NCBI GenBank assembly: GCA_045533905.1
Contig: JAZSIR010000001.1
Coordinates: 7,617-71,616, forward strand
Direction of reading: 5' to 3'
Length of the DNA stretch: 64,000 nt
Origin: Clostridia bacterium
Lineage (GTDB): Bacteria; Bacillota; Clostridia; UMGS1883; UMGS1540
Shown: piece by piece, positions 2,110 to 19,051 of the stretch
How positions within the stretch are numbered: the stretch's first letter is position 1
Layout: every line of letters begins with the position of its first letter
Made by a program: the position numbers and the translations under genes
The notes under the pieces: generated by a model
Seen by the model: only the letters and a program-made list of their open reading frames with translations
Databases searched by the model: none
Told to the model about the DNA's origin: nothing

Positions 2110-3197
2110 TTAAGATAAATCACTTAAAGAAAGAATATGCAAATGTTACTCCCTTAAAGGATGTAAATGTTCATATTCATAAGGGCGATGTCATTTCTAT
2201 TATTGGTCCTTCAGGCACCGGTAAATCAACCCTTATCAGATGTATCAATATGCTTGAAACTCCCACTTCCGGCGATATTTTCGTTAACGGTGAACGAATT
2301 ACCGACAAAAAATGTAACATAAACAAAATCCGTCAGAAGATGGGTATGGTGTTCCAATCCTTCAATTTGTTTAACCACATGAACATTATTGAAAACATTA
2401 TGGCAGCACCTATGGACTTACTTAAAAAATCAAAGCAGGATGCTTATGACGACGGTATGGAGCTTCTTCGCACAGTTGGTCTTGCAGATAAAGCCTTTAA
2501 CTATCCCGATGAGCTTTCAGGCGGTCAGAAACAGCGTGTTGCCATAGCAAGAGCACTCGCAATGGAACCCGAAATAATACTCCTTGATGAGCCGACATCG
2601 GCGCTCGATCCCACAATGGTCGGTGAAGTTCAGGCGGTAATTAAAGACCTTGCAAAAAAAGGCTTAACTTTAATGATAGTAACTCACGAAATGCGATTTG
2701 CAAGAGAAATTGCAAACAGAGTTTTCTATATGGATGAAGGCGGTGTTTATGAAGACGGAACACCTGAAGAAATCTTCGATAATCCAAAGCGAGAAAAGAC
2801 AATCAGATTTATTAAGCACCTTAAAGTATTTGAAAATCTTATCACCTCAAAGGATTTCGACTTTATAGGCTTTAATACATCTTTAGAAGAATTCGGCAGA
2901 CGAAATCAGGTTCCGCAGGAAACCATTTACCGCGCACAGTCGGTATTTGAAGAACTTGTTGTGCAATGTCTTCTTCCAAAGCTTGAGGAAGAGTTTACTC
3001 TAAGTATTGCCTTTGAATATTCTCAAGATGAAGAAACACTTTCGATGATTATGAAATATGACGGAGAACATTTCGATGTACGAAATACACCTAATGTTAT
3101 TTCGTTTGCTATTGCTGAAAATGCATCAGAAAGCATTGATTATACTGAGTGTAACGACGGTAATTTTACAAACCTCGTGACGGTGAAAATCAAATAA
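2106..3197 (+). CDS. Amino-acid ABC transporter ATP-binding protein (GlnQ-like) with an extra C-terminal domain of about 120 aa
   Basis: Walker A GPSGTGKST, signature LSGGQKQRVAIARAL, Walker B ILLDEPTSALD, H-loop VTHEM. ATGA overlap with the upstream permease. Residues about 241-363 lie beyond a normal NBD. Confidence 0.9.
   Translation: MIKINHLKKEYANVTPLKDVNVHIHKGDVISIIGPSGTGKSTLIRCINMLETPTSGDIFVNGERITDKKCNINKIRQKMGMVFQSFNLFNHMNIIENIMAAPMDLLKKSKQDAYDDGMELLRTVGLADKAFNYPDELSGGQKQRVAIARALAMEPEIILLDEPTSALDPTMVGEVQAVIKDLAKKGLTLMIVTHEMRFAREIANRVFYMDEGGVYEDGTPEEIFDNPKREKTIRFIKHLKVFENLITSKDFDFIGFNTSLEEFGRRNQVPQETIYRAQSVFEELVVQCLLPKLEEEFTLSIAFEYSQDEETLSMIMKYDGEHFDVRNTPNVISFAIAENASESIDYTECNDGNFTNLVTVKIK
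2826..3194 (+). other. RsbW/SpoIIAB-like (GHKL-fold) pseudo-kinase module fused to ABC ATPase 1
   Basis: Hand alignment to the stand-alone kinase at 13992-14402: QSVFEELVVQC vs IDIAIDELFGNI. FTLSIAFEYSQDEETLSMIMKYDGEHFDV vs ATVRVEVTEDPLAVVITFIDNGVPYDP. IDYTECNDGNFTNLVTVKIK vs IAYEYKDGHNILKIKK. It lacks the N-box Asn and the GGLG box. Confidence 0.5.
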
Positions 3198-3209
3198 CGA
3201 GGTGATAAA

Positions 3210-3563
3210 TTGGAACAGTATAATTTTTCAAACAGCAATATTGACCTTGCCTGTGAGGATGTTGGCGTTTTTCTGACATCGGTCGGAGTGGAAAAACGCG
3301 AAGTTTTGCGAAACAAACTCACCCTTGAGGAAATACTCCTTGAATACCAAGCAAAGTTTGGTGAAGAAGCGAACTTTAAGGTAAGATGCGTAAACCGCTT
3401 TATGACCATCAAGGTTGAGTTAATTGTTTCGGGACGGGTTTACAATCCGCTTGAAAAGAACGAGGAAGAAAACATCATACATGGAATTTTGGCAGGTATC
3501 GGTCTTGCCCCCTCATACGGATACAGAAACGGAAAGAATTATATCATTTTCACTCCCAAGAAA
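3210..3563 (+). other. RsbW-like pseudo-kinase module at the N-terminus of symporter 1
   Basis: NIDLACEDVGVFLTSV / KLTLEEILLEY / FKVRCVNRFMTIKVELIVSGRVYNPLEK / YGYRNGKNYIIF are collinear with NIETVTDFVNEQLEAF / IDIAIDELFGNI / ATVRVEVTEDPLAVVITFIDNGVPYDPLAK / YEYKDGHNILKI of the kinase at 13992-14402. Confidence 0.5.
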
Positions 3564-4781
3564 AAACCGTTGTCAAGCACGGTTAAAATGGGTGTGGCGA
3601 TTGGACTTTCGCTCATTTGCGGTTTTTTCCTTAATCTTCTGCCCGATTCAGTTAGAGCAGGTGCAAGCAAATATGTACTTTCGCCTGTGACCGATGCGTT
3701 TATGGGATTGATTTCGGCTGTATCGATTCCGCTGATTTTCTTGTCTGTCCTTGGTAGCATCTGCTCTATGGGCAACATGGAAACTCTCGGCAAAATTGGA
3801 AAAAAGACCATTAAAACTATTCTCCTGTATTTGACGGCGTTCAGTATACTTATGACAGCACTTGGAAGCTTGTTCTTTCACGTACAGTGGGGTGGCGGAG
3901 GAGCATCAGGTTTCTCACAGGTTTTCGATTTGATTTATAACATCATTCCATCGAATATGTTTGAACCTTTTATAACGGGAAATACTCTGCAGCTTATCTT
4001 CATTTCCATTATAGTTGGACTTGCAATGCTTGTCCTTTCGACAAGAGTGAACGGTGTTTTCAAACTTGTCGAACAGTTGGGCGCGATTGTGCAAACAATT
4101 ATGTCAGGACTTTCATCTATGCTGCCGATTTTGATTTTTGTACTCTTTACGGGAATGATATCCGGCGGAGAGTTCGGAACTCTGCTTGATTCTTGGAAGA
4201 TTATTGCAGTTTTCCTGTTGCTCGTTATGGTTTACTATGCAACAACTGTTTTGTACATTGCATTTAATAAAAAAATTTCGCCGGCTTTGCTATTAAAAAA
4301 GACATGGAAGACGCTTATTATTGCTCTTACAACTGCATCTTCTGCTGCGGCATTCCAAAAAAATATTCGCGATTCAAACAAAAAGTTTGGTATTGACAAA
4401 CGTCTCGCGGAATTTGGGGCATCCTTGGGACAAGTGTTGTTCAGCCCTGCTGATGTTGCTATTCTCATTGCAATGGAGGTTGGGTTTGCGGAAATGTATG
4501 GCATTGCGATCACTCCGCAGTTTTTAATCATTGCGTTGATCACGAACCTACTTTTGTCATTTTCCATTCCTCCCGTACCCGGAGGCTCTGTGATGGGATA
4601 CACTATTGCATTCACACAGCTTGGTATTCCTTTGGAGGTTATGGGTGTTGTTCTTGCCTTGGATGCGATCATTGATTTTCCGGCAACAGCGTGCAACATT
4701 TCGGGATGGCAGCTTACAATGATTGAGGTTGCTGACTCGCTCGATATGCTCGATAAAGAAACACTTTGCAAAAAGAGATGA
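3210..4781 (+). CDS. Dicarboxylate/amino-acid:cation symporter (DAACS/SDF family), paralog 1, with an extra N-terminal soluble domain
   Basis: TTG start 6 nt after GAGGTG. Multiple hydrophobic segments. SDF-type motifs TTASSAAAF, PPVPGGSVMGYT, DAIIDFPATACNISG. The first ~118 aa are non-membrane. Confidence 0.85.
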   Translation: MEQYNFSNSNIDLACEDVGVFLTSVGVEKREVLRNKLTLEEILLEYQAKFGEEANFKVRCVNRFMTIKVELIVSGRVYNPLEKNEEENIIHGILAGIGLAPSYGYRNGKNYIIFTPKKKPLSSTVKMGVAIGLSLICGFFLNLLPDSVRAGASKYVLSPVTDAFMGLISAVSIPLIFLSVLGSICSMGNMETLGKIGKKTIKTILLYLTAFSILMTALGSLFFHVQWGGGGASGFSQVFDLIYNIIPSNMFEPFITGNTLQLIFISIIVGLAMLVLSTRVNGVFKLVEQLGAIVQTIMSGLSSMLPILIFVLFTGMISGGEFGTLLDSWKIIAVFLLLVMVYYATTVLYIAFNKKISPALLLKKTWKTLIIALTTASSAAAFQKNIRDSNKKFGIDKRLAEFGASLGQVLFSPADVAILIAMEVGFAEMYGIAITPQFLIIALITNLLLSFSIPPVPGGSVMGYTIAFTQLGIPLEVMGVVLALDAIIDFPATACNISGWQLTMIEVADSLDMLDKETLCKKR

Positions 4782-4790
4782 GGTGGTTAA

Positions 4791-5144
4791 TTGGAACAGT
4801 ATAATTTTTCAAACAGCAATATTGACCTTGCCTGTGAAGAAGTCGGTGAGTTTCTTTCCAAAGTCGGTGTAGAACGACGCGAGGCTCTCCGAACAAAGCT
4901 CACATTTGAGGAAGTATTGCTTGAATACCAATCCAAGTTCGGAGAGGAAGCCACCTTCAAGGTGAGACTTCTGAAACGCTTGTCCTCTATAAAGGTCGAG
5001 ATCATCGTAGAAGGAGAATCCTACAACGCTCTTGTCAAAAACAGCGACGAGGGTGACGTGATACAAGGTCTGCTTGCAGGTATCGGTCTTGCTCCTACTT
5101 GGAATTACAAGAACGGTAAAAATTACATCGTATTTATACCAAAG
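4791..5144 (+). other. RsbW-like pseudo-kinase module at the N-terminus of symporter 2
   Basis: Same block structure as 3210-3563: NIDLACEEVGEFLSKV, KLTFEEVLLEY, FKVRLLKRLSSIKVEIIVEGESYNALVK, WNYKNGKNYIVF. Confidence 0.5.
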
Positions 5145-6365
5145 AAAAAACCGCTGTCCGGCACGGCCAAAATGGTCGGTGCAATCGGACTTGCGGTGAT
5201 TTGCGGAATTATCTTAAATCTCTTGCCAGACGGAATCAGAGCAGGCGCAAACGATTATGTGCTAACACCCGTAACGAATGCGTTTGTGGGACTTATCTCA
5301 GCAGTATCAGGGCCGCTGATCTTCCTATCGGTTCTCGGCAGTATCTGCTCCATGGGCAATATGGAAACCCTCGGCAAGATCGGAAGTAAGACGATTAAGG
5401 TTATCCTTCTTTATATGACGGTAATCGCAGTATTGATGACCGCATTCGGCTGCCTGTTTTATCACATTGAAATGGGTGGCGGAGGGACATCGAGCTTCTC
5501 GCAGATTCTCGATTTGATCTATGACATCATTCCGTCAAATCTGTTTGAACCCTTTGTAACCGGAAATGCTTTGCAGCTGATCTTCATTTCCATCATGGTC
5601 GGACTTGCAATGCTTGTCCTATCGTCGAGAGTCAGTGGCGTGTTCAAGCTCGTGGAACAGCTCAGCTCCATCGTGCAAACGATTATGTCGGGGCTGTCCT
5701 CAATGCTTCCGATTCTGATATTTGTTCTCTTTACGGGAATGATTTCAAGCGGTAACCTTGGTGCAATTCTCGATTCTTGGAAGATGATATTAGTCATCGT
5801 GCTAATGATTGTAGTTTACTACGTACTGAATCTTCTGCGAATCTCCCTTATGAAAAAGATACCGCCGGCTTTGCTGATGAAGAAAGCGTGGCAGACACTT
5901 CTCATTGCACTTACCACCGCATCCTCGGCTGCCGCGTTCGGTACGAACACCCGTGATGCAAACAAAAAGCTTGGTATTGACAAAAAGCTTGTTGAGTTCG
6001 CAACTCCCATCGGTCAGGTATTGTTTATGCCCGGATATGTCGCCATGCTTTTTTGTATGGAAATGGGCTTTGCGGAATCCTACGGTCTTCCGATTACTCT
6101 ACCGTGGATATTTATCGCTCTTATCACAAATCTTTTGTTATCATTTGCAGTCCCGCCCGTGCCCGGTGGTGCAATGATGGGATTTACGATTGCTTTTACA
6201 CAACTCGGCATTCCTATGGAGGTTATGGGTATTGCGTTGGCGGTGAACGCTATCATTGATTTCCCCTGTACAGCCTGCAATGTTTCAGGATGGCAGCTTA
6301 CTCTTATTGATGTTGCTGACTCACTTAATATGTTGGATAAAGAATCATTACATAAAAATAATTAA
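4791..6365 (+). CDS. DAACS/SDF-family symporter, paralog 2 (tandem duplicate of 3210-4781), with the same N-terminal extra domain
   Basis: Collinear with paralog 1 over its full length. Same TTG start context. Motifs TTASSAAAF, PPVPGGAMMGFT, NAIIDFPCTACNVSG. Confidence 0.85.
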   Translation: MEQYNFSNSNIDLACEEVGEFLSKVGVERREALRTKLTFEEVLLEYQSKFGEEATFKVRLLKRLSSIKVEIIVEGESYNALVKNSDEGDVIQGLLAGIGLAPTWNYKNGKNYIVFIPKKKPLSGTAKMVGAIGLAVICGIILNLLPDGIRAGANDYVLTPVTNAFVGLISAVSGPLIFLSVLGSICSMGNMETLGKIGSKTIKVILLYMTVIAVLMTAFGCLFYHIEMGGGGTSSFSQILDLIYDIIPSNLFEPFVTGNALQLIFISIMVGLAMLVLSSRVSGVFKLVEQLSSIVQTIMSGLSSMLPILIFVLFTGMISSGNLGAILDSWKMILVIVLMIVVYYVLNLLRISLMKKIPPALLMKKAWQTLLIALTTASSAAAFGTNTRDANKKLGIDKKLVEFATPIGQVLFMPGYVAMLFCMEMGFAESYGLPITLPWIFIALITNLLLSFAVPPVPGGAMMGFTIAFTQLGIPMEVMGIALAVNAIIDFPCTACNVSGWQLTLIDVADSLNMLDKESLHKNN

Positions 6366-6384
6366 AAGAAAGAGGTAGATTACT

Positions 6385-6681
6385 ATGACTATCGAAAAAA
6401 ACTTAAACGGAACCGAACTGACAGTTGCCATTGTTGGCAGACTTGACACAACAACCGCACCTGAACTTGAAGCATCTTTAAAAGAAAGCTTTACTGGTGT
6501 AGAAAAACTTGTGCTTGATTTTGCTTCACTTGAGTATCTTTCTTCTGCAGGACTTCGTGTTCTTCTGGCGGCTCAGAAGGCAATGAACAAGCAGGGCGAA
6601 ATGATTATTAAGAATGTAAACGAAACCATCAATGAAATCTTTGAAGTAACGGGATTTATTGATATTTTGACAATCGAATAA
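6385..6681 (+). CDS. STAS-domain anti-sigma-factor antagonist (SpoIIAA/RsbV-like), copy 1
   Basis: 98 aa of typical STAS length. Phospho-serine loop LEYLSSAGLRVLL. RBS AGAGG 9 nt upstream. Confidence 0.85.
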   Translation: MTIEKNLNGTELTVAIVGRLDTTTAPELEASLKESFTGVEKLVLDFASLEYLSSAGLRVLLAAQKAMNKQGEMIIKNVNETINEIFEVTGFIDILTIE

Positions 6682-6701
6682 TTGCTTAGGGAGGGCTTTG
6701 T

Positions 6702-7595
6702 ATGCCGAATTACGATTTTTTGCTTGAGCATAAGCTGAAGGAACTGAATAGTGAGTTTGCATATCGGCATACCTGCTGTATGTCACTTTTTGAGCAAATG
6801 CTGAAAAGGTTTCTCGCCGTATTCCCAACATTTACCGATCATACACTCCTACATACTTTGAGTGTGACAAACATATCAAACCAACTGCTTCGTGAAAATG
6901 TTATGAAATTAAATGCAAGCGAGATATACATATATCTTATGGCGTGTGCTTTGCATGATATTGGAATGGGTGTTTCGGACAAGGACATTGGCTCATTTAT
7001 TGATGCATCCGGTCTCAGAGGATATGTAAACGAACATCCTGAAATATCTAAGCCTAATTTGATACGCAAATTTCACAACGATTTTTCAGCACAGTTTGTA
7101 AAAAAGTATTGGGAGATACTTGAGATACCAAATAAGCGGTATGCTGATGCGATTGCTGAGGTCGGACGAGGGCACAGAAAGACGGATTTGATGGATGAAG
7201 CACTTTATCCTACAGATTACGAACTTGGTGACGGAAGCAAAGCGAATCTTGCCTTGCTTGCGGCACTTATACGACTTTGCGATGAGCTTGATATAGCATC
7301 GGACAGAAACCCTGATTTGCTGTATGATACCGAAACTATGGAGGGTATGAGCGAGAAGGATGTATTTGAGTTTTCCAAGCACGAGGCTATCCATACGCTA
7401 AAGTTTAGTGAGGATAATATTGTGGTTATTGCTGACACAGATAAACCGGATATTGCCGATGGAGTTATAGAGGCGATCCGTACTGTTAAAGAAACTCTTG
7501 AATATTGTCTTTCTGTAATCAGCAAACGTAGTGATTTTCAAATTGATTGCGAAACAATAAAACTGATATTAAATGATAAAGAAGTAGAGGTGTAA
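6702..7595 (+). CDS. HD-domain metal-dependent phosphohydrolase
   Basis: H...HD...D ligand pattern (DHTLLHTL, CALHDIGM, RLCDELD). No further family assignment is possible by eye. Confidence 0.65.
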   Translation: MPNYDFLLEHKLKELNSEFAYRHTCCMSLFEQMLKRFLAVFPTFTDHTLLHTLSVTNISNQLLRENVMKLNASEIYIYLMACALHDIGMGVSDKDIGSFIDASGLRGYVNEHPEISKPNLIRKFHNDFSAQFVKKYWEILEIPNKRYADAIAEVGRGHRKTDLMDEALYPTDYELGDGSKANLALLAALIRLCDELDIASDRNPDLLYDTETMEGMSEKDVFEFSKHEAIHTLKFSEDNIVVIADTDKPDIADGVIEAIRTVKETLEYCLSVISKRSDFQIDCETIKLILNDKEVEV

Positions 7596-7599
7596 AAAT

Positions 7600-8313
7600 A
7601 TGGCAACTGCACATATAAATGCAAAACCGGAGGATTTCGCAAAAACGGTGCTTATGCCCGGCGATCCTCTCCGCGCAAAGCTGATCGCGGAAAAATATCT
7701 TGAAAACGCTGTACTTGTAAATAATGTCAGAGGCGTTCAGGGCTATACGGGTACATATAAGGGCAAACGAGTGTCCGTTATGGCGAGTGGTATGGGAATG
7801 CCGTCAATGGGTATTTATTCTTATGAGCTTTACAAGTTTTTCGGAGTAGAAAACATTATTCGTATTGGTTCAGCAGGTGCTCTTAATACCGATATTTATG
7901 TTCGTGATGTTGTAATCGGTATGGGTTGTTCTACTGATTCCAATTTTGCGGCAAATTACAAGCTTCCCGGAACTTTTGCTCCACTTTGCAGCTACAAACT
8001 GATGGACGCTTGTGTTGAAAGTGCAAAAGAAATGGGTGTAACATATCACGTGGGCAACCTTCTTTCGTCAGATATTTTCTATGGTGATGACGAAACGGCA
8101 AACGACGCCTGGGCAAAGATGGGTGTTATGGCAATAGAGATGGAGGGTGCGGCACTTTATATGAATGCTGCGCGTCTTGGCAAAAACGCCCTTGTTATTT
8201 GTACCGTATCCAATCACATAATCACGGGCGAGGAAACTACTGCTGAGGAAAGACAGAATTCCTTTGGTGAAATGATTACATTGGCACTTGAAACCGCCTT
8301 GAAGTTAGACTGA
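7600..8313 (+). CDS. deoD: Purine nucleoside phosphorylase, DeoD type
   Basis: 237 aa. N-terminus HINAKPEDFAKTVLMPGDPLRAK, plus RIGSAGAL and AIEMEGAALY, all characteristic of hexameric PNP. Confidence 0.9.
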   Translation: MATAHINAKPEDFAKTVLMPGDPLRAKLIAEKYLENAVLVNNVRGVQGYTGTYKGKRVSVMASGMGMPSMGIYSYELYKFFGVENIIRIGSAGALNTDIYVRDVVIGMGCSTDSNFAANYKLPGTFAPLCSYKLMDACVESAKEMGVTYHVGNLLSSDIFYGDDETANDAWAKMGVMAIEMEGAALYMNAARLGKNALVICTVSNHIITGEETTAEERQNSFGEMITLALETALKLD

Positions 8314-8327
8314 CGGAGGGGGTACTG

Positions 8328-8966
8328 ATGGTAGAAATATTGAAGGGACTTGGCATCACCGTTTTTCTGACTGTTGCATGCTTTATAACAGCATCCTTGA
8401 TTGGAGCATTAACTTGTGCCGGCTTTTGCTCTAAAAACAAAATAGTCAGAACGGTATGCAAGATTTATAATGGCTTGGTGATTAAGATTCCTCCGCTCGT
8501 TATGTTAATGCTTTTCGCATTAGTCGTTATGGGCGACCGTAATAAAGGAACTATATTTATTGCTTTTGTAGGACTGTCTCTTTTTGTTGCAGCAAATCTT
8601 ACCGGTGTTTTCTGTGGCGGTGTTTTTTCCGTTGCAAATGGAGAAATTGAAGCGGCTCGCACGTTGGGAATGAACAAGATTCAAACATTTTTTCATGTTA
8701 TGTTACCTCAGATAATTGAAAACATTGTTCCGGTATATATGTCAATGTTTGTGATGTGTATGCAGATTACAAGTGTGGCATCCGTTATTGGAGTAGGTGA
8801 ATTTCTTAGCGTAACCGATGGTATTTCCGATGCTGTAATTGGAATTGTGATTTCGATTTCAGGTTATTTTGTTATTGGAACACTCGGTGATTTCGTTATC
8901 ACCCGTATAGGAAAGATAAAACATATTAAAGCAAAGGATTATCCTGGAAAGGCGGAGGTGAGATAA
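8328..8966 (+). CDS. Amino-acid ABC transporter permease (no adjacent binding protein)
   Basis: 212 aa, hydrophobic, with EAA loop EIEAARTLGMNKIQTFFHVMLPQ. Immediately followed by an ATPase gene. Confidence 0.8.
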   Translation: MVEILKGLGITVFLTVACFITASLIGALTCAGFCSKNKIVRTVCKIYNGLVIKIPPLVMLMLFALVVMGDRNKGTIFIAFVGLSLFVAANLTGVFCGGVFSVANGEIEAARTLGMNKIQTFFHVMLPQIIENIVPVYMSMFVMCMQITSVASVIGVGEFLSVTDGISDAVIGIVISISGYFVIGTLGDFVITRIGKIKHIKAKDYPGKAEVR

Positions 8967-8967
8967 G

Positions 8968-10059
8968 ATGAGTCTTGTAGAAATAAAAAATCTTACCAAG
9001 CGTTTCGGAGATAATCTTATTTGGGAGAATGTCAACGAATCTATCGAAAAAGGCGATGTGATAGTTATTGTCGGTAACTCGGGTTGCGGAAAGACAACTT
9101 TCCTTCGGTGTATCAATATGCTTGAAACACCTTCATCCGGTCAGATTTTCATTGATGGTGATGAAATAACTGCAGTCGGTGCTGATATTGATAAAATTCG
9201 CAGTAAAATGGGTATGGTGTATCAGAATTTCAATTTGTTCTCACATCTTACTGTACTTGAAAACATTATTAAGGCACCAATGGTGGTTAATAAGATTCCC
9301 AAGGAGCAGGCAATCAAGGAAGGTATGGAATATCTTCGTATGGTAGGTATGCAAGAGAAAGCAGATTTTATGCCCGATCAGCTTTCGGGCGGACAGAAAC
9401 AGCGTGTGGCAATTGCCCGTTGTCTTGCTATGAAGCCTGAAATCATTCTGTTTGACGAACCGACAAGCGCACTTGATCCTACAATGGTGGATGAGGTTCT
9501 TGCGGTTATTAGAAATCTTGCTAAGAGTGGGTTCACTTGTGTAATTGTAACCCACGAAATGGCATTTGCTAAAAGTGTGGCAAGTAAAATCATCTTCTTT
9601 GCTGACAGAGGAATTTATGAGGAGGCACCGCCTGTTGAGTTTTTTGAGCATCCCAAAAGAGAAAAAACAGTTGCCTTTGTTCGCAAACTCAAGACCTATA
9701 CCTACGAGTCTGAGGTTTGCAATATCGATCTTTATACACTTTTAGTTCAGGTCAACAATTATTGTAGTAAATATGCATTTCCGCTTAAATCTGCAAACCG
9801 TTTTCAATTAGTAGTGGAAGAACTTTTAACCTGTTTGCAAAGTATTGGCGGAGATGGCGAGATGAACTTGACTGTGGCGTATGAAGATACCACAGGCAAA
9901 AAAGAAATTATTTTGCGCGAAAAAGTGTGTAAGGGAAATATACTTGATGCGGAGCAGATGGACGAACTGAGTCTGATGCTTATTAAGAACTGTGCATCCG
10001 ATATTAAGCACTGCGTTGAAAACGGATATAATGTATTAACAATTGAAATAAAAGAATAG
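8968..10059 (+). CDS. Amino-acid ABC transporter ATP-binding protein, paralog 2, with the same extra C-terminal domain
   Basis: Walker A GNSGCGKTT, LSGGQKQRVAIARCL, ILFDEPTSALD, VTHEM. 363 aa, the same length as 2106-3197. Confidence 0.9.
   Translation: MSLVEIKNLTKRFGDNLIWENVNESIEKGDVIVIVGNSGCGKTTFLRCINMLETPSSGQIFIDGDEITAVGADIDKIRSKMGMVYQNFNLFSHLTVLENIIKAPMVVNKIPKEQAIKEGMEYLRMVGMQEKADFMPDQLSGGQKQRVAIARCLAMKPEIILFDEPTSALDPTMVDEVLAVIRNLAKSGFTCVIVTHEMAFAKSVASKIIFFADRGIYEEAPPVEFFEHPKREKTVAFVRKLKTYTYESEVCNIDLYTLLVQVNNYCSKYAFPLKSANRFQLVVEELLTCLQSIGGDGEMNLTVAYEDTTGKKEIILREKVCKGNILDAEQMDELSLMLIKNCASDIKHCVENGYNVLTIEIKE
9688..10056 (+). other. RsbW-like pseudo-kinase module fused to ABC ATPase 2
   Basis: NIDLYTLLVQVNNYCS / QLVVEELLTCL / MNLTVAYEDTTGKKEIILREK / IKHCVENGYNVLTIEIK are collinear with the kinase at 13992-14402. 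No N-box Asn and no GxGxG box. Confidence 0.5.
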
Positions 10060-10082
10060 AATTTTCGGCAAGTGAGGTTTTT

Positions 10083-11771
10083 ATGAAACGATTGTTGTAT
10101 GGCGGTACGGTTGTTAATGTGTTCACAGGCGAGCTTGAGCAAACGAACGTGCTGATAGAAAAAGATAAAATTGTAGGTGTTGGTGCATATTCTCCCGATG
10201 ATGCGGATATGACCGAGGATATTACAGGAAAGTACATATGCCCCGGATTTATTGACGGTCATATTCACATTGAAAGCACGATGTTGACACCCTCAGAGCT
10301 TGCAAGACTGTGTATGCCTCACGGAACTACCGCAATCGTTGCCGATCCTCACGAGATTGCCAATGTATGCGGTATGGATGGCATCAAATATATGATGGAA
10401 GCAAGTAGCGGTATCCCTCTCTCGGTTTATTTTACATTGCCTTCCTGCGTTCCCGCAACACCGTTTGATGAATCGGGTGCGGTGCTTGAGGCGGACGATA
10501 TCAGACCACTGTACGAAAACAAGCGAGTTGTAGGACTTGCCGAAATGATGAACTATCCCGGAGTTCTCCTTGGAACGAGCGATGTGTATAACAAAATCGG
10601 TGATGCAATAGAACACGGAAAAGTCATTGATGGCCACGCCCCCTTCTTGTCAGGAAAAGAACTTGATAAATACATTTGTGCAGGTATTACGAGTGACCAC
10701 GAGTGCTCGGATGTGGGTGAAGCGATAGAAAAAATCAGAAAAGGTCAATGGGTGATGATTCGCCAAGGAACGGCTGCTCGTAACCTTGCAGAGCTATTGC
10801 CATTGTTTGATGATGCTTATAGCCATAGATGCGTTCTTGTCACCGATGACCGTCATCCCGCAGACCTTATAAGAGACGGACATATTGATAATATCATCCG
10901 TCTTGCCGCCCGAGGCGGGAAATCAGTTATTACGGCAATTAAAATGGCTACGATACAGGCAGCTCAGTGCTTCGGTTTGCGATTCGTTGGGGCTGTTGCT
11001 CCCGGTTACCGTGCAGATCTTCTTGTACTAAACGACCTTAATGCAGTTGATATTGAAGACGTTTATTCAAAGGGAGAAAAGGTTGTAGAGCGAGGGCAAA
11101 TGAAAGCGTTTGACCGTCCCAAAATTGACGGGGGGTTGTGCGAAACAGTACATAACTCGTTCCATACAAAAGAATTGACGATTGCTGATTTTCACATTGA
11201 AGAAAATAGCAACAAATGTCGAGTGATAGAGATTATTCCCGGTCAGCTTCTCACGGGGGAACAAGTGTGTGAGATTGATTGGAGCAAGAGGAACGGCATT
11301 GACACCACGAGAGACATTCTTAAACTCGCGGTTATTGAAAGACACAAAAACACAGGTCATATTGGACTTGGCTTTATTAAGGGTATTGGAATAAAAAATG
11401 GTGCTATTGCATCCTCCGTATCTCACGATTCACACAATATTATTGTGATTGGCTCAAATGACGAGAATATGGTGATTGCCGCAAATAACATCCGTAAGAA
11501 TGGTGGTAATGTAGTTGTTTCTGCCGGAAAGATTATTGCCGACATGGCATTGCCGATAGCAGGTCTTATGACCAATCTTTCAGGCGAGGAAATTGCCCTT
11601 GCCAATGAAAATGTACGCAAAGCCGTGTATGAGCTTGGCGTGTCGAGGAATATCGAACCTTTTATGAATATGGCGTTTGTGAGTCTGCCTGTAATTCCGT
11701 CACTCAAAATGACGACGCAGGGGCTTGTGAACGTAGATAAACAAGAAAGAATATCGCTTTACTGCGATTAA
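10083..11771 (+). CDS. ade: Adenine deaminase
   Basis: 562 aa. Amidohydrolase HxH motif in GFIDGHIHIESTMLTP. Length and layout match the adenine deaminase family. Confidence 0.85.
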   Translation: MKRLLYGGTVVNVFTGELEQTNVLIEKDKIVGVGAYSPDDADMTEDITGKYICPGFIDGHIHIESTMLTPSELARLCMPHGTTAIVADPHEIANVCGMDGIKYMMEASSGIPLSVYFTLPSCVPATPFDESGAVLEADDIRPLYENKRVVGLAEMMNYPGVLLGTSDVYNKIGDAIEHGKVIDGHAPFLSGKELDKYICAGITSDHECSDVGEAIEKIRKGQWVMIRQGTAARNLAELLPLFDDAYSHRCVLVTDDRHPADLIRDGHIDNIIRLAARGGKSVITAIKMATIQAAQCFGLRFVGAVAPGYRADLLVLNDLNAVDIEDVYSKGEKVVERGQMKAFDRPKIDGGLCETVHNSFHTKELTIADFHIEENSNKCRVIEIIPGQLLTGEQVCEIDWSKRNGIDTTRDILKLAVIERHKNTGHIGLGFIKGIGIKNGAIASSVSHDSHNIIVIGSNDENMVIAANNIRKNGGNVVVSAGKIIADMALPIAGLMTNLSGEEIALANENVRKAVYELGVSRNIEPFMNMAFVSLPVIPSLKMTTQGLVNVDKQERISLYCD

Positions 11772-11804
11772 AAATAATAATAATTTAGAAAGAGGTAATT
11801 TATA

Positions 11805-12101
11805 ATGACTATCGAAAAGAACTTAAGCGGTACAGAACTTAATGTAAAGGTGTCAGGCAGACTTGACACAACAACCGCACCGGAACTTGAAGCAGAAGTT
11901 ATGGGCGCAATCTCAGGTGTAACAAAACTTGTACTTAACTTTGAAGCACTTGAGTACCTTTCATCTGCAGGACTCAGAGTACTGCTTCAGGTACAAAAGA
12001 TAATGAACAAGCAGGGTGAGATGATTATTAAGAACGTAAACGAAACAATCAATGAGATTTTTGAAGTAACAGGATTCATTGATATTCTGACGATTGAATA
12101 A
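11805..12101 (+). CDS. STAS-domain anti-sigma-factor antagonist, copy 2
   Basis: 98 aa paralog of 6385-6681. Same LEYLSSAGLRVLL loop. The last 32 aa are identical to copy 1. Confidence 0.85.
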   Translation: MTIEKNLSGTELNVKVSGRLDTTTAPELEAEVMGAISGVTKLVLNFEALEYLSSAGLRVLLQVQKIMNKQGEMIIKNVNETINEIFEVTGFIDILTIE

Positions 12102-12144
12102 GGTGAACTCCAATGAACCAAACAAGTATTGGAGGGATATACCT

Positions 12145-13995
12145 ATGAAACCAAAAAAGCAAACAAGCATTTCCTACAACTTCCTAAAATGGCTCTTATT
12201 CTTGATGCTCGTCGCCTTTATTGCCACAACCGTGTTCCTGTGGGTATTCCAAACACGACTCGCAAACAACAATGCCGACAATCTCTTGCGGTTGAACATC
12301 ACTGATGTCAAGGCAGACATAAAAGACGCCACCAACGACCATATGCTTGAGATCGTTCGCAACATATCGGCAGAGCTTGACGATATAGATGCAGATACCG
12401 CATCAGAAGAAGAAATGAGTGCACGAATTGCGGAAATGCTCACACGGTACGATGTAACGGAGATTGATATTATCAACAGTAAAGGTATCATCGTGGCGTG
12501 TAATATCGAATCTTTCGTCGGCTTCGATATGGCATCGGGCGAGCAATCCAAAGAGTTCTTGGTGTTGCTCGAAGGCGAAAAGGAAATGGTGCAGGAATTT
12601 CAAGCTCAGTCCTATGACAGCTCCATTGAGCGTAAGTATGCAGGCGCATCGCTTACAAACGGCGGTCTTGTGCAGATTGGTTATGACTACGCGCATTTGC
12701 AGGCGAGCGTTGACCACGAGGTTGTTTCGCTCACCCGTAACCGTCACGTGGGCAACAACGGACGAGTTCTGATTGTTGACCAAGATAAAAACATTGTCAG
12801 CAATGTCAAAGGAATTGACCGTAAAAAACTTGATTTAGAAGCGTTCGGAATAAAACCCGGCTCTGTTCAATCAGGACAACGTGTTACCGCAAACGTAGAG
12901 GGTGTTGATTTCTACTGTATGGCAGAAATGGCCGAAGGCTACTACATTATATCCGCAATACCGGTTAAAGAAGTAACCATCACACGAAATATGGTTGTCA
13001 TTATGGCAGTTGCGGTTGAAATGCTGATATTTATTGCCCTGACGCTTCTTGTCTATCTTTTGATAAAGAAACAGATCGTCGTCAGCGTGAACCGTATCAA
13101 CCATTCGCTATCGGAGATCACAAACGGAAACCTTGATGTTACGATGGACGTGCGTAACAATTTGGAATTTGACTCACTTTCCAACGACATCAACGCAACG
13201 GTAGATACTTTGAAGCGGTACATCAAGGATGCAGAAGAACGCATCGACGCAGAGCTTGCCTTTGCAAAAGCCATTCAGCACTCGGCGTTGCCGTCTGTAT
13301 TCCCGCCTTATCCGAATAGAAAAGAGTTCGAGATCTTCGCCACGATGCACACGGCAAAAGAGGTTGGCGGTGATTTCTACGATTTCTATTTTGTAGACGA
13401 AGATAACCTTGCGTTCTTGATAGCAGACGTATCCGGCAAGGGTGTCCCTGCGGCAATGTTTATGATGCAATCCAAGACCATCATCAAGAGCTGTGCCGAG
13501 TCGGGCATGAGCGTTGAGCAGGTATTCACCGTTGCCAACGAAAAGCTCTGCGAGGGCAATGATGCAGGTATGTTCGTTACCGCCTGGATGGGTATTCTGA
13601 ATACCAAAACCGGCAAGGTACTCTTTGCCAATGCCGGACATAACCCGCCTCTTGTCAAACACGCAGACGGTACATACGAATATCTCAAATCCCGTGCAGG
13701 TTTTGTGCTTGCAGGTATGGAGGGTGTTCGCTACCGCAAGAATGAAGTTGAGCTTGCACCCGGTGATGCGATTTATCTCTACACCGACGGTGTTACCGAA
13801 GCAACCGATCTGAACACCGAGCTTTACGGAGAAGATCGTCTGCATATCGTTCTTGAAAAATACAAAGATGCAGCACCGCAAGTGATCTGTGATGAAGTCA
13901 AAAAGGATGTAGACGCCTTCGTCGGGGAAGCTCCGCAGTTTGATGACATTACAATGCTTGCGCTGAAATACTACGGGAAGGAGGATGCACAATGA
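12145..13995 (+). CDS. Membrane sensor PP2C/SpoIIE-family serine phosphatase (RsbU-like): TM, extracytoplasmic domain, TM, HAMP-like linker, PP2C
   Basis: ATG at 12145 lies 8 nt after GGAGGG; the track ORF starts earlier at a TTG. Two TM segments flank about 270 aa. PP2C motifs GGDFYDF, ADVSGKGVPAA, TDGVTEA, FDDITML. Confidence 0.85.
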   Translation: MKPKKQTSISYNFLKWLLFLMLVAFIATTVFLWVFQTRLANNNADNLLRLNITDVKADIKDATNDHMLEIVRNISAELDDIDADTASEEEMSARIAEMLTRYDVTEIDIINSKGIIVACNIESFVGFDMASGEQSKEFLVLLEGEKEMVQEFQAQSYDSSIERKYAGASLTNGGLVQIGYDYAHLQASVDHEVVSLTRNRHVGNNGRVLIVDQDKNIVSNVKGIDRKKLDLEAFGIKPGSVQSGQRVTANVEGVDFYCMAEMAEGYYIISAIPVKEVTITRNMVVIMAVAVEMLIFIALTLLVYLLIKKQIVVSVNRINHSLSEITNGNLDVTMDVRNNLEFDSLSNDINATVDTLKRYIKDAEERIDAELAFAKAIQHSALPSVFPPYPNRKEFEIFATMHTAKEVGGDFYDFYFVDEDNLAFLIADVSGKGVPAAMFMMQSKTIIKSCAESGMSVEQVFTVANEKLCEGNDAGMFVTAWMGILNTKTGKVLFANAGHNPPLVKHADGTYEYLKSRAGFVLAGMEGVRYRKNEVELAPGDAIYLYTDGVTEATDLNTELYGEDRLHIVLEKYKDAAPQVICDEVKKDVDAFVGEAPQFDDITMLALKYYGKEDAQ

Positions 13996-14402
13996 AAGAA
14001 CTAACCATTGCCGCAACAGTAGAAAACATTGAAACTGTAACGGACTTCGTAAACGAACAGCTTGAAGCGTTTGATTGCCCTATGAAAGCACAGATGCAGA
14101 TCGACATTGCCATCGACGAGCTTTTCGGCAACATTGCGCACTATGCGTACAATCCCGATGTAGGAGAAGCGACCGTTCGCGTGGAGGTTACCGAAGATCC
14201 TCTTGCCGTGGTAATCACCTTTATTGATAACGGCGTACCTTACGATCCTCTTGCAAAAGCCGAGCCCGACACAACGCTTTCCGCAGAGGAAAGAGACATC
14301 GGTGGTCTTGGCATCTATATGGTGAAGAAGTCTATGGACGACATTGCCTATGAATACAAAGACGGACACAACATTTTGAAAATCAAGAAGAATTTGAATT
14401 AA
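13992..14402 (+). CDS. Anti-sigma regulatory factor-type Ser/Thr kinase (RsbW/SpoIIAB-like, GHKL ATPase)
   Basis: 136 aa. N-box DELFGNIAHY, G1-like IDNGVPYDP, G2 GGLGIYMV. ATGA overlap with the phosphatase gene. Confidence 0.8.
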   Translation: MKELTIAATVENIETVTDFVNEQLEAFDCPMKAQMQIDIAIDELFGNIAHYAYNPDVGEATVRVEVTEDPLAVVITFIDNGVPYDPLAKAEPDTTLSAEERDIGGLGIYMVKKSMDDIAYEYKDGHNILKIKKNLN

Positions 14403-14415
14403 AGGATTATTGCAA

Positions 14416-16602
14416 ATGAAGAACTTAAACAAAAAACTTTTGACCTTCGGTATAGTTTTGTGTATGCTTCTCTCGTGTTTTTCGGGAGTGGTATTTGCAA
14501 AGGATATCGAAACAATCGTTATTCTTTATGAAAACGATGTTCATTGTGCAGTAGAGGGTTATTCTAAACTTGCAGCAATGAAAAATGAATTATCAGAAGA
14601 TTATGAATATGTAGGCGTTGTATCCTCCGGCGACTTTGTTCAGGGCGGAACTCTTGGTGCAGTTTCTCGTGGTGAATACATAGTAAGCCTTATGAACCTT
14701 GTGGGATATGATGCCGTAACACTTGGTAATCACGAATTTGATTATAAGCTCCCACGCCTTGATGAACTTGCAGAATTGATGAACACCGAACCTATCTCTT
14801 GTAACTTTCAAAAGATAGGTGAAACTGAATCATATTTTGAGCCGTATTCCATCGTAACCTACGGTGATGTGGATATAGCATATATCGGTATCACAACACC
14901 ATCTACATTGTCCTCATCGTCACCTGCACAGTTTAAGGGTGAAAATGGTGAGTATATTTACACATTCAATGTAGATACCCTTTACGATGTGGTACAGGCA
15001 AGTATTGATTCTGCAAAGGAAGATGGTGCTGATTACATAATCGCCCTTTCTCATATTGGATATGAAGAAGATGAGCAGTATGAGGATGTTGTTGACTTAA
15101 TTGAAAACACATACGGATTTGATGTTGTTCTTGATGCTCATTCTCACTCTGTTATTGAAAATATGAAGCTGACCGATGAGGGCGGAAATGAGGTTGTTCT
15201 TACCTCAACAGGCACAAAGTTTGAAAATATCGGCAAGCTTACAATTTCAGGCGGTGAGATAACAACAGAGCTTATAGAAACTGAGAACTACACAAACACA
15301 GATACAACCGTTGATGCAAAACTTGCGGAAATAAACGAAGCATATTCTGCTCTCGGTAATCGCAAGATTGGTGAAAGCGAAATAGAGCTTATCACGAACG
15401 ATGCGGACGGAAACCGCCTTGTTAGGACAACAGAAACCAATCTCGGCAATTTGTGTGCAGATGCAATTAAAACAGTAACGAAAGCTGATATTGCCTATGT
15501 AAACGGCGGCGGAATCCGTGCACCGATTGAAATTGGCGAAGTATCGTTCAATGACATTTTTAGTGTTTTTCCATTTAACAATCAGATTGTTGTAGCAGAA
15601 ATGACAGGTCAGAAAATACGCGATATGCTTGAAATGTCACTTATGAATTATCCGGCAGAAGATGGCTCTTTCCCTCATGTTGCAGGACTAACATTTTCGG
15701 TTAATAAATCCATTCCAACATCTGTTAAAACAGACGAAAACACAGTTTTTACAGGCGTTGACGGTGAGTATAGAGTTTATGATATTAAAGTATTAAATGA
15801 AGACACAGGCGAATACGAGCCTATTAAACTCGACGGAACATACTCCTTTGCAAGCTTCAACTACTTTGTTTTAGACCAAGGCGGCGGTATGAGTATGTTT
15901 GACGGTGTAAAAATATTAAAGAATGACGGAATGCTTGATGTTGAAGCGTTAGAAACATACATCACAGAAAACCTTGGCGGTGTTATCGGCGAAGAATATG
16001 CAGAGGTAGATAACAGAATCAACTTTACAGACGGTGAAGATGCACTTAATAAGTTCACCGATTTGTCCGATGATGCTTGGTATAGTGATTCTGCAAAGTA
16101 TGTTTTGGAAAACGGTCTTATGAAAGGCGTAACAGATACCACCTTTGCACCAAACGAAAACTTAACAAGAGCAATGCTTGTTACAGTTCTTTACCGTGCA
16201 GAAAATGAACCTGCCACAAACCGCAGCATTCCTTTCTCTGATGTTGATACGGGTGCTTACTATGCAAGTGCAGTTTCTTGGGCAAAGCAGAACGGTATTG
16301 TAAACGGTGTAACAGAAACAGAATTTGCACCGAATGACAATATCACCCGTGAACAGATTGCGGCAATTATGCACAGATACGCACAGTACAAGGGTTATGA
16401 TGTCAGCGTAGGAGAAAACACAAATATTCTTTCCTATGACGATTTTGACAGCATTTCCGAGTATGCAATAGCTTCTATGCAGTACGCTTGCGGCAGCGGC
16501 TTGATTAAGGGTAAATCAGAAAGCACCCCCAATCCGCTTGATAATGCTACAAGAGCAGAAATAGCAGCAATACTTCACAGATTTATTGAAGTGAATAAGT
16601 AA
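14416..16602 (+). CDS. Secreted 5'-nucleotidase/metallophosphoesterase anchored by three C-terminal SLH domains
   Basis: Signal peptide MKNLNKKLLTFGIVLCMLLSCFSGVVFA. Calcineurin-like motifs GDFVQGG and GNHEFD. C-terminal SLH repeats (FTDLSDDAWY..., FSDVDTGAYY..., FDSISEYA...). Confidence 0.85.
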   Translation: MKNLNKKLLTFGIVLCMLLSCFSGVVFAKDIETIVILYENDVHCAVEGYSKLAAMKNELSEDYEYVGVVSSGDFVQGGTLGAVSRGEYIVSLMNLVGYDAVTLGNHEFDYKLPRLDELAELMNTEPISCNFQKIGETESYFEPYSIVTYGDVDIAYIGITTPSTLSSSSPAQFKGENGEYIYTFNVDTLYDVVQASIDSAKEDGADYIIALSHIGYEEDEQYEDVVDLIENTYGFDVVLDAHSHSVIENMKLTDEGGNEVVLTSTGTKFENIGKLTISGGEITTELIETENYTNTDTTVDAKLAEINEAYSALGNRKIGESEIELITNDADGNRLVRTTETNLGNLCADAIKTVTKADIAYVNGGGIRAPIEIGEVSFNDIFSVFPFNNQIVVAEMTGQKIRDMLEMSLMNYPAEDGSFPHVAGLTFSVNKSIPTSVKTDENTVFTGVDGEYRVYDIKVLNEDTGEYEPIKLDGTYSFASFNYFVLDQGGGMSMFDGVKILKNDGMLDVEALETYITENLGGVIGEEYAEVDNRINFTDGEDALNKFTDLSDDAWYSDSAKYVLENGLMKGVTDTTFAPNENLTRAMLVTVLYRAENEPATNRSIPFSDVDTGAYYASAVSWAKQNGIVNGVTETEFAPNDNITREQIAAIMHRYAQYKGYDVSVGENTNILSYDDFDSISEYAIASMQYACGSGLIKGKSESTPNPLDNATRAEIAAILHRFIEVNK

Positions 16603-16620
16603 ATAGCAAAATGGCACTAA

Positions 16621-16648
16621 GGAGTGAGTCGAAAGGCTCACTCCTTTT
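16621..16648 (+). terminator. Rho-independent terminator ending the 16.6-kb + strand gene array
   Basis: GGAGTGAG-tcgaaagg-CTCACTCC followed by TTTT. Confidence 0.7.
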
Positions 16649-18507: not shown

Positions 18508-18549
18508 ATTTTATAATTCCACTACTTTTGAAAATGGCGGCAAAATCGA

Positions 18550-18578
18550 TTGACGCACATCTTGCGATATGTTAGAAT
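18550..18578 (+). promoter_or_regulatory. Sigma-A-type promoter upstream of the recombinase operon
   Basis: TTGACG, 17 nt, TAGAAT, with an extended-10 TGn (tgtTAGAAT). Confidence 0.55.
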
Positions 18579-18794
18579 AGCCACACAACAAATTATACAC
18601 GATACAAATAAAAATGTCAATCGTGGAAATTGAACCTTGAAAACTTAATAGCCGAACCGCAAGGGATACATTCTCGGGGAAGTGTCGCCACGATATGAGC
18701 GCACCAAGAGATGAAAATACGATGTCGGTGTCAAACAAGGCAGGAGGTCAGGAACTGTAGCGGAAGTCGGTGCTAAAATAATTATATGAAGGGA

Positions 18795-18959
18795 ATGATG
18801 TTTATGAAATCTATGAATATAGAGATAGAAAAGGCTGTTGCCAAGGCTATGATTTTAAACCTGTTAAAAGCAAACCTTATAAGCGATGAGGAAGCAAACA
18901 AGCTGATAGATAAAGCCTTTGATGCATTAAGCGAGCCTTTAATAGAAAACTCAGCATAA
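18795..18959 (+). CDS. Small hypothetical ORF (51-54 codons) preceding the recombinases
   Basis: Below the track cutoff. ATG codons at 18795, 18798 and 18804. Peptide MKSMNIEIEKAVAKAMILNLLKANLISDEEANKLIDKAFDALSEPLIENSA, predicted helical. Confidence 0.35.
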   Translation: MMFMKSMNIEIEKAVAKAMILNLLKANLISDEEANKLIDKAFDALSEPLIENSA

Positions 18960-19051
18960 TCTTTTAGTTTTTGTTTAATATTTGTCTGGATATATTAAGT
19001 TATTTGTGGTATTGTTGTCTTGAAAAAAATATGGAAAGGAGTGTGAGGCTG

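Follow-up and report, generated by a model that had tools for sequence, protein, structure and literature searches.

Partner-switching modules are abundant in bacteria, and few outputs are known for them besides sigma factors. In the Bacillus modules RsbU/RsbV/RsbW and SpoIIE/SpoIIAA/SpoIIAB, the components are a STAS protein with a phosphorylatable serine, a SpoIIE-type PP2C phosphatase and a small HATPase_c_2 kinase of the GHKL type. Partner switching with outputs other than sigma factors is known from SiaABCD of Pseudomonas aeruginosa, in which SiaC acts on the diguanylate cyclase SiaD (SiaB-SiaC structure, 6kko), and from HsbR/HsbA. The STAS protein MlaB reportedly binds the nucleotide-binding domain of MlaF directly and is not known to be run by a kinase/phosphatase pair. 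In MlaB-MlaF, a STAS protein of one domain acts on the ATPase subunit of an ABC transporter and thereby regulates it (PMC7367683). Here we analysed a stretch of 64,000 nucleotides (nt) from a Clostridia bacterium (GenBank assembly GCA_045533905.1, contig JAZSIR010000001.1; hereafter the window), in which positions 1-16602 of the + strand hold 14 consecutive genes that form one tightly packed array of transporters, partner-switching genes and purine enzymes. Our leading interpretation, held with even confidence, is that this array provides amino-acid import gated post-translationally by a sigma-less partner-switching module, to which a branch for the breakdown of purine nucleotides and nucleosides is attached.

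The window shares with the Bacillus modules the STAS protein with its serine, the SpoIIE-type phosphatase and the small GHKL kinase, and the domains fused to its transporters are predicted to have the same fold as SpoIIAB and RsbW. It differs from them in that no sigma factor was identified among the annotated genes and in that five RsbW-like domains are encoded, four of them on transporters and without the catalytic Asn, so that STAS, and not the kinase, would be the component that switches partners. In SiaABCD and HsbR/HsbA the target is a separate protein without a kinase-like fold, whereas the presumed docking pseudokinase of the window is fused into ABC ATPases and SDF symporters. The window system goes beyond MlaB-MlaF in that the ATPase bears an RsbW-like domain of its own and in that genes for a kinase and a PP2C accompany it. 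By analogy, the nearest precedents appear to be non-sigma partner switching (SiaABCD, HsbA) and the action of MlaB on MlaF. The array genes, and the structure that closes the array, are as follows.

1..2109, + strand: ABC importer subunit with a partial substrate-binding domain (SBD), a full SBD, an N-terminal half-SBD (~1054-1410) and a transmembrane domain (TMD); SBP_bac_3 in three stretches plus BPD_transp_1
2106..3197, + strand: ABC ATPase 1, 363 amino acids (aa), with a predicted RsbW/SpoIIAB-like C-terminal pseudokinase domain at residues ~239-363 (nt ~2820-3194)
3210..4781, + strand: SDF-family symporter 1, 523 aa, with a predicted N-terminal RsbW/SpoIIAB-like pseudokinase domain at residues 1-~118 (nt 3210-3563)
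4791..6365, + strand: SDF-family symporter 2, 524 aa, with the same N-terminal RsbW-like domain (nt 4791-~5144); SDF Pfam match at residues 127-500
6385..6681, + strand: STAS protein 1, anti-sigma-factor-antagonist type; STAS/STAS_2, TIGR00377 71 bits against a cut-off of 53
6702..7595, + strand: HD-domain phosphohydrolase of the HD-CE family; Pfam PF24391 120.7 bits against a cut-off of 27
7600..8313, + strand: DeoD-type (hexameric-class) purine nucleoside phosphorylase (PNP) with Asn at the Asp204 position; NF004489, TIGR00107
8328..8966, + strand: second ABC permease, 212 aa, polar-amino-acid type; BPD_transp_1 49.5 bits, EhuD/GltK/TcyL-like matches
8968..10059, + strand: ABC ATPase 2, 363 aa, with a diverged C-terminal RsbW-like domain (nt ~9688-10056); ABC_tran, TcyN/GlnQ-like
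10083..11771, + strand: adenine deaminase; TIGR01178 610.9 bits against 472.5, Adenine_deam_C (PF13382) 195 bits
11805..12101, + strand: STAS protein 2; STAS/STAS_2, TIGR00377 75.7 bits
12094..13995, + strand: membrane sensor PP2C, made of a transmembrane segment (TM), an extracytoplasmic domain of ~260 aa, a second TM, HAMP and a SpoIIE-type PP2C domain; SpoIIE 175 bits, HAMP
13992..14402, + strand: stand-alone RsbW-type serine kinase, 136 aa; HATPase_c_2 79 bits, RsbW/SpoIIAB-like
14410/14416..16602, + strand: secreted SLH-anchored 5'-nucleotidase/UshA-family metallophosphoesterase; Metallophos (PF00149), 5_nucleotid_C (PF02872), SLH
16619..16646, + strand: intrinsic-terminator-like hairpin; 12-bp stem, GAAA loop, then UUUU

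Both ABC ATPases and both SDF symporters carry an extra domain of about 120 residues. It is C-terminal in the 363-aa ATPases, on which the match to the 240-position GlnQ profile stops at about residue 239, and N-terminal in the symporters, where it starts about 125 residues before the SDF domain. A Pfam scan of these segments, HATPase models included, gave no family match. AlphaFold 2 models of the extension domains (pLDDT 88.6 and 91.9) predict, for all four, a Bergerat-type alpha/beta fold closest to that of anti-sigma kinases. The profile of the SDF N-extension (alignment A1), in which the extensions of the two symporters are 70% identical, aligned end-to-end with the RsbW-type kinase of the window (hhalign Prob 80.6%, E 1.3e-5, 104 columns), and the N-extension hidden Markov model retrieved stand-alone RsbW genes in related loci (E 2e-4 to 8e-4). 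The C-extension profile aligned with the same kinase over 107 columns (hhalign E 5.5e-4), and the extension of ATPase 2 can be aligned over its whole length with its counterpart in ATPase 1 (alignments A2/A3) at ~20% identity, with R, EEL and S conserved. Single-sequence C-extensions gave no significant match to the N-extension profile; it is their common fold that links the two types. The N-extension has a deletion where the N-box would be, the C-extension has 'EELVVQ' there, and both types have an Arg six residues ahead of the 'EE-L' motif, at the place of the E-x-x-x-N N-box of active kinases. The N-box Asn is retained in none of the four extensions, which do not show the N-box Asn and G1/G2 boxes of an active kinase. 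As judged from these residues and the predicted fold, the window appears to encode one intact kinase of the RsbW type and, on transporters, four RsbW-like domains that are kinase-dead. All of these fused domains would be cytoplasmic because of the established topology of the transporter families.

Such fusions are not confined to the window. The N-extension profile matched 931 cluster representatives at E <= 1e-3, nearly all of those checked being SDF fusions; among matches of non-standard length, 9/9 with a Pfam match were SDF proteins or fragments of them and one had no match. The clusters bearing the N-extension (at least 931) come mostly from gut Clostridia, and gut metagenomes hold hundreds of same-length close homologues of the 523-aa symporter, on contigs and metagenome-assembled genomes (MAGs) of Clostridia from sheep, yak, buffalo, deer and human gut (Oscillospiraceae, Acutalibacteraceae, Faecousia). 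A search with the C-extension alone against a set of 5.8 billion proteins gave 32 matches, nearly all of 75-215 aa; these are probably contig-end fragments and were used for alignment, not for distribution. A literature search returned MlaB-MlaF and general reviews, and nothing on RsbW-like domains fused to transporters. Kinase-dead RsbW domains on amino-acid carriers and ABC ATPases are a concrete and widespread candidate output of partner switching. If STAS does gate these transporters, this would be a new, fast and reversible control of nutrient uptake in dominant uncultured anaerobes of the rumen and human gut, and many orphan genes for STAS, PP2C and RsbW would thereby gain a function.

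A further extension was seen in a related locus (L030), in which the MatE exporter (8550-10277, 575 aa) has a C-terminal stretch of ~125 residues that looks RsbW-like by eye, with an N-box-like 'EELLLNIIKFG'; this likeness was confirmed by neither hhalign nor BLAST.

The components of a partner-switching relay are encoded alongside these transporters. Both STAS proteins contain the motif 'YLSSAGL', the second Ser of which is, from the STAS alignment, the candidate phosphorylatable residue and which we take to correspond to RsbV Ser56 and SpoIIAA Ser58. The sensor PP2C shows two hydrophobic segments in its translation, and its external domain is weakly Cache-like (dCache_1 E 2e-4, below cut-off). 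The stand-alone kinase retains the N-box Asn and the G boxes ('DELFGNIAHY', 'DNGVPYDP' and 'GGLGI'). No sigma factor was found among the 14 array genes or the other window open reading frames (ORFs) scanned, which are not all those of the window, nor among the Pfam-labelled called genes of three related loci (L001, L002 and L030), in which several unannotated ORFs were left out of the scan. Among the long loci with an SDF fusion, STAS is present in 10/12 and PP2C in 8/12.

These features suggest the following mechanism, drawn from the families, folds and gene neighbourhood. The sensor PP2C would dephosphorylate the phosphorylated STAS protein on an extracytoplasmic signal. Unphosphorylated STAS would then dock on the pseudokinase domains of ATPases 1 and 2 and of SDF symporters 1 and 2, switching transport on or off, and the 136-aa kinase would re-phosphorylate STAS at an ATP-dependent rate, competing for it and resetting the system. 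In the attached branch, HD-CE would dephosphorylate a purine nucleotide to the nucleoside, which the Asn204-type PNP would split, its substrate probably being a nucleoside of the 6-oxopurine class, for example inosine or guanosine. Adenine compounds would be funnelled to the level of hypoxanthine (6-oxo) by adenine deaminase or, in other array versions, by adenosine deaminase. The surface 5'-nucleotidase would be an optional add-on, releasing phosphate and nucleosides extracellularly.

The transporters themselves point to amino acids. The best solved relative of the complete SBD of the window (SBD2) is SBD1-SBD2 of Lactococcus lactis GlnPQ (6h30), and GlnH is also close. As in GlnPQ, several SBDs lie N-terminal to the TMD and a GlnQ-like ATPase is encoded; fusions of the window type differ in their length (984-986 aa in full-length orthologues), in having more SBD units and a half-SBD, and in the extra C-terminal domain of the ATPase. 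The ligand residues of the SBDs were read in the domains in which the positions fall inside the window: the carboxylate-binding Arg is retained in SBD2 ('ITITDERK') and in the half-SBD ('YMTPERK'), and the ammonium-binding Asp in SBD2 ('MLDKPN') and in the partial first SBD ('GCDESL'). ABC system 1 therewith combines SBP_bac_3 domains bearing Arg and Asp with a GlnQ-like ATPase, and the permeases are of the HEQRo type, as in polar-amino-acid importers. A comparison of the pocket residues with GlnH-type proteins had been proposed by the sequence-only reading of this stretch; it indicates that the ligands of the alpha-amino acid are retained. From these residues, the SBDs of system 1 most likely bind alpha-amino acids, with no pointer to nucleosides.

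With regard to binding-domain architecture, only the N-terminal half of an SBD directly precedes the membrane domain of the window fusion (~1054-1410), and a separate 273-aa substrate-binding protein (SBP) of an Oscillospiraceae MAG (L002, 19705-20526) has an apparent C-terminal half followed by an N-terminal half; both may be permuted or split binding domains.

Both symporters score above the Pfam SDF threshold (208 and 219 bits), contain the HP1 'SSA' and HP2 'VPG' motifs and were aligned to GltPh-type structures (9bgz, GltTk). They share with GltPh/GltTk, ASCT and SstT (DAACS) these motifs and the equivalents of D394, T398 and N401, which in GltPh are ligands of the alpha-amino and carboxylate groups, but differ from them by Ala or Cys at R397, Trp at D405, the loss of NMDGT and the added 120-residue N-terminal domain. 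Symporter 2 shows the motifs LFMPGY and IIDFPCTACNVSGW. This pattern recurs: LFSPAD or LFMPGY replaces NMDGT in 119/120 SDF homologues, and the TM8 motif, matched in 64/120, has Ala/Cys at R397 in 55 and Trp at D405 in 64/64. Such residues fit neutral alpha-amino acids with atypical ion coupling and give no hint of nucleosides. As far as ligand residues can tell, the substrates of the window transporters are most likely polar or neutral amino acids and not nucleosides.

The purine enzymes are interleaved with the SBD-TMD fusion, the two ATPases, the 212-aa permease, the two SDF symporters, the two STAS genes, the HAMP-PP2C and the HATPase_c_2 kinase. The sequence-only reading had placed an HD hydrolase, DeoD, adenine deaminase and a 5'-nucleotidase in this array, and the Pfam and NCBIfam scores agree with the position and identity of all four, the nucleotidase starting at 14410 or 14416. 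It had also described an operon-like alternation of these genes with transporters and partner-switching genes, uninterrupted by a terminator until the end of the array, and this holds. The intergenic distances range from -8 to +33 nt, start and stop codons overlap in three cases, and a Shine-Dalgarno-like purine-rich stretch lies upstream of most starts. The hairpin at 16619-16646 is the first convincing terminator-like structure (-21.4 kcal/mol, z = -4.6, with 0/200 shuffles folding as well), a consensus terminator scan inside the array having given only weak hairpins at chance level. The window begins inside the first gene, the frame of which is open from base 1, and the array must therefore continue beyond the window. 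We read the region as the distal half of one long operon of an uncultured gut Clostridia bacterium (Oscillospirales-like).

HD-CE was identified by its PF24391 score and by the conserved H...HD...H...D metal ligands of the HD site, the His and Asp residues of which (H47, H51, H85-D86, H125, H158, D194 and D197) are invariant in 12 homologues. The exact sequence of the window HD-CE gave no entry in public assemblies. A phmmer search of the PDB gave no solved relative, and a profile search against structures gave only matches of E 0.4-0.6, to an exopolyphosphatase and to the HD domain protein 2o6i, which we take to be the Enterococcus faecalis dNTPase EF1143. No meaningful hhalign match was obtained with a SpoT-like HD_4 protein or a YfbR-like HD protein, and literature searches for 'HD-CE' or PF24391 found nothing. 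An RsbW-like docking domain within HD-CE was looked for and is not present.

The neighbourhood of HD-CE was followed in 43 further metagenomic loci and in the contexts of distant homologues, annotated against the window proteins. The gene directly upstream of HD-CE is STAS in 20/31 evaluable loci and adenosine deaminase in 5 more of these, and DeoD directly follows HD-CE in 10/28; these counts include near-duplicate metagenomic contigs, so that they are not independent and are indicative only. Some of these loci are minimal STAS-HD-CE-SDF modules. A module common in the human gut consists of STAS, HD-CE fused to a methyltransferase (576 aa), PP2C, RsbW and an SDF with N-extension, in which NMDGS and the Arg at R397 are intact. 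The counts are indicative of HD-CE being a companion of the STAS switch and of the purine enzymes being accessories of HD-CE. HD-CE, an uncharacterised family, is thus consistently tied to STAS genes and purine-processing enzymes, and its partner PNP is a conserved Asp204-to-Asn variant.

The partner domain in the human-gut fusion is a class I S-adenosylmethionine-dependent methyltransferase domain (L057:10001-11731, and ~15 similar loci).

The DeoD of the window is an ordinary family member by score (NF004489 344.2 bits against 230; TIGR00107 297.3 bits against 232.25) and is strongly similar over its full length to solved DeoD structures (E 1e-72 to 1e-76). It differs from E. coli DeoD at the catalytic general acid, Asp204 in E. 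coli numbering: its 'ICTVSNH' aligns with 'ICTVSDH' (or 'TISDS') of solved DeoDs, which places Asn at this position (residue 205 codon). The Asn is found in 8/8 array-type DeoDs (window, L001, L015, L017, L030, L038, L039 and L040); the PNP type of L002, a locus with adenosine deaminase, retains Asp. In the E. coli D204N variant, proton transfer to N7 is blocked (PMC11477426), and PNP I of Thermus thermophilus accepts only 6-oxopurines (PMC11430614). Cleavage of adenosine by the array-type DeoD is therefore doubtful, and so is the route from adenosine through adenine to hypoxanthine by DeoD and adenine deaminase.

Adenine deaminase was found in the window only among the compared loci, being absent from the equivalent position in L001 and L017, and is a variable accessory gene of the array. 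Adenosine deaminase (PF00962) is encoded elsewhere in the arrays of L002 and L061; its presence in place of adenine deaminase in relatives argues for selection on purine deamination. The 5'-nucleotidase has both catalytic domains, a signal-like hydrophobic N-terminal segment, a wall anchor and the metallophosphatase motifs DVH, GD, GNHE and HSH, which makes it a surface-anchored member of the 5'-nucleotidase/UshA family. At ~160 bits, the best NCBIfam matches, Nt5e and UshA, are too far below the equivalog cut-offs of 1050 and 600 to assign a substrate. The catalytic core, Metallophos plus 5_nucleotid_C, is that of Streptococcus sanguinis Nt5e (NF040549) and UshA, and surface display is as in the cell-surface ecto-5'-nucleotidases of Gram-positive bacteria, with an SLH anchor and not LPXTG. 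It occurs in 3/40 HD-CE loci.

The claim that the purine genes belong to the array is upheld by other genomes, where HD-CE and PNP, themselves only 41-46% identical to those of the window, recur with the transporters and with STAS, PP2C and RsbW. The closest relative (L001) shares array genes that are mostly ~80-99% identical, the PP2C and 5'-nucleotidase being less so; it repeats the gene order of the window, has the 5'-nucleotidase, lacks adenine deaminase and has an acyltransferase gene ahead of its PP2C, which is shorter. In the locus of the Oscillospiraceae MAG (L002), the order is SBD-TMD, ATPase, SDF, SDF, adenosine deaminase, HD-CE, PNP, STAS, STAS, acyltransferase, PP2C, RsbW, SBP, permease, ATPase, with identities to the window of ~70% for the SDFs, 41% for HD-CE and 46% for PNP. 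Elsewhere (L030), a STAS-HD-CE-PNP-STAS block stands with a MatE exporter, a methyltransferase and a GNAT acetyltransferase. The HD-CE/PNP pair is thus found in at least three different array architectures of other genomes, and its association with the array is more than chance. Minimal SDF-STAS-PP2C(-RsbW) modules exist without purine genes (L024 and L027): the purine genes are a recurrent, optional part of a larger conserved system. The individual enzymes are of known kinds; as far as we could find, a sigma-less switch that combines pseudokinase receivers on SDF and ABC transporters with a branch of HD-CE, PNP(Asn204) and deaminase is undescribed.

Several points weigh against our leading interpretation. 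The docking of STAS on the fused domains is proposed from predicted fold and gene neighbourhood only, and sequence ties the C-extension to RsbW only weakly (hhalign Prob 30%), the predicted fold being the basis of this link. For the second ABC system, the window offers no SBD from which a substrate could be read. In the symporters, the Na+-site motif NMDGT and D405 are lost; coupling, and perhaps substrate, would be atypical. No solved or characterised relative of HD-CE was found in PDB, profile and literature searches, and the non-independence of the locus counts was mentioned above. The shift of the PNP to 6-oxopurines is argued by analogy with T. thermophilus PNP I, which presumably carries Asn204; the array enzyme could instead be slow or regulatory.

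The array might also be a loosely co-transcribed super-operon for nutrient scavenging, in which ordinary salvage genes ride along with amino-acid importers, for instance to supply nitrogen or ribose, the switch regulates the transporters only and HD-CE is a generic nucleotidase. We regard this as possible though rather unlikely. The ordinary family scores of DeoD and adenine deaminase, the varying gene content among close relatives (adenine deaminase, 5'-nucleotidase, acyltransferase, nonribosomal peptide synthetase (NRPS)-like genes) and the many SDF-STAS-PP2C-RsbW loci without any purine genes speak for it. The adjacency of HD-CE and STAS, minimal modules included, is however too regular for a passenger, the PNP beside HD-CE is a distinct Asn204 subtype conserved across architectures, and deaminases of two unrelated families were recruited to the same neighbourhood. 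An unlikely alternative goes further than our leading interpretation and supposes an undescribed signalling logic in two parts: the STAS relay on pseudokinase 'receiver' domains would gate SDF carriers, ABC ATPases and possibly MATE exporters after translation, and HD-CE would be a STAS-coupled hydrolase of a purine signal, acting on an alarmone-like or adenylate-derived nucleotide whose product the Asn204 PNP and the deaminases clear. One related locus (L018) fits this proposal because a RelA/SpoT-type synthetase and a SpoT-like HD protein adjoin STAS there in the place of HD-CE: in that array, which lacks HD-CE and is similar in other respects, a small operon (5427-7328, - strand) of a RelA_SpoT-type small alarmone synthetase, a SpoT-like HD_4 hydrolase and STAS separates the ABC ATPase from the SDF.

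The sequence-only reading had favoured scavenging of extracellular nucleotides, in which the surface 5'-nucleotidase, an importer of an amino-acid family re-purposed for another substrate, DeoD and adenine deaminase lead to hypoxanthine; this we consider quite unlikely. All the enzymes are present and intact, and its observation that the window holds no recognisable nucleoside or nucleobase permease stands, no such family having been found within the window (the remaining multi-pass membrane ORFs are Mem_trans, DUF1538, MatE, LGT and VanZ). In five loci, the window and L001, L017, L038 and L040, permease 2 and ATPase 2, for which the window holds no SBD, directly follow HD-CE-DeoD; the SDFs are atypical, lacking NMDGT and R397; and the 5'-nucleotidase recurs in L001 and, next to HD-CE and an NRPS-like gene, in L032. 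A re-purposed importer is possible for permease 2/ATPase 2 or the atypical SDFs, with no positive support. Yet the transporters do not bear out a different substrate, the readable SBDs being GlnPQ/GlnH-like with Arg and Asp and the SDFs keeping D394, T398 and N401, and the linear route through DeoD falters at the Asn found in all eight sequences, which argues against adenosine cleavage (PMC11477426). Nor is the pathway a fixed one, given the rarity of the 5'-nucleotidase among HD-CE loci and the restriction of adenine deaminase to the window, and the HD hydrolase tracks STAS genes and not the nucleotidase, standing with PNP even beside a MatE exporter instead of importers. The idea of a re-purposed nucleoside transporter is thereby replaced by testable hypotheses on HD-CE and its PNP. 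Finally, the array could be cargo of a mobile element, a nucleotide-depleting defence or conflict system with the HD hydrolase, the PNP-family enzyme and the deaminase as effectors, which we hold to be highly improbable. It does adjoin a mobile element with three serine recombinases and a PBECR3/LPD3 protein, sharing its low GC content, and part of HD-CE weakly matches the HD region of the defence reverse transcriptase RT_UG24 (E 4.7e-8). A PADLOC scan of nine array proteins led us to reject this explanation, as it returned, besides that partial match, only generic ABC/AAA matches of ATPase 1; moreover, the arrays of relatives stand in ordinary chromosomal context (RNase J, MnmA, PnuC) with GC like their flanks, DeoD and adenine deaminase are of housekeeping type, and the locus consists mostly of nutrient importers.

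The mobile-element block lies directly downstream of the array (window 17401-27566):

17401-18507, - strand: DUF6076 protein
18971-23064, + strand: three large serine recombinase genes
23469-27566, - strand: 1365-aa polyvalent protein with PBECR3 and LPD3 domains

The GC content is 0.417 in the array, 0.403 in the mobile block and 0.494 in the 27.6-64 kb part of the window, a contrast that is not seen in the arrays of relatives; the array may have arrived with or beside this element. Far from the array, one more purine-related gene is present:

40170-40745, - strand: Ham1/RdgB-type non-canonical purine NTP pyrophosphatase

This gene is probably a housekeeping one, unrelated to the array.

The related arrays show further genes at their borders. 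Upstream of the array, an AgrA/AgrC-like LytTR response regulator and a HATPase_c_5 histidine kinase are encoded in L001:3565-5942, L006:7607-9601 and L030:2927-6174, followed in L001 and L030 by a small ORF of 79-96 aa; such two-component genes, which in the present genome would be located outside the window on its left side, probably control transcription of the array. NRPS-like genes occur in or beside related arrays, with the domains C-A-T-reductase in L017:15673-19857 (1394 aa) and A-T-C in L032:5682-8678, and suggest a small-molecule product in some array versions. A 1396-aa ORF occupies in L018:9575-13765 the same position as the L017 gene. Elsewhere in the window, two very large proteins of 2226 aa (51263-57943, - strand) and 974 aa (31155-34079, - strand) have signal-like N-termini and would be secreted.

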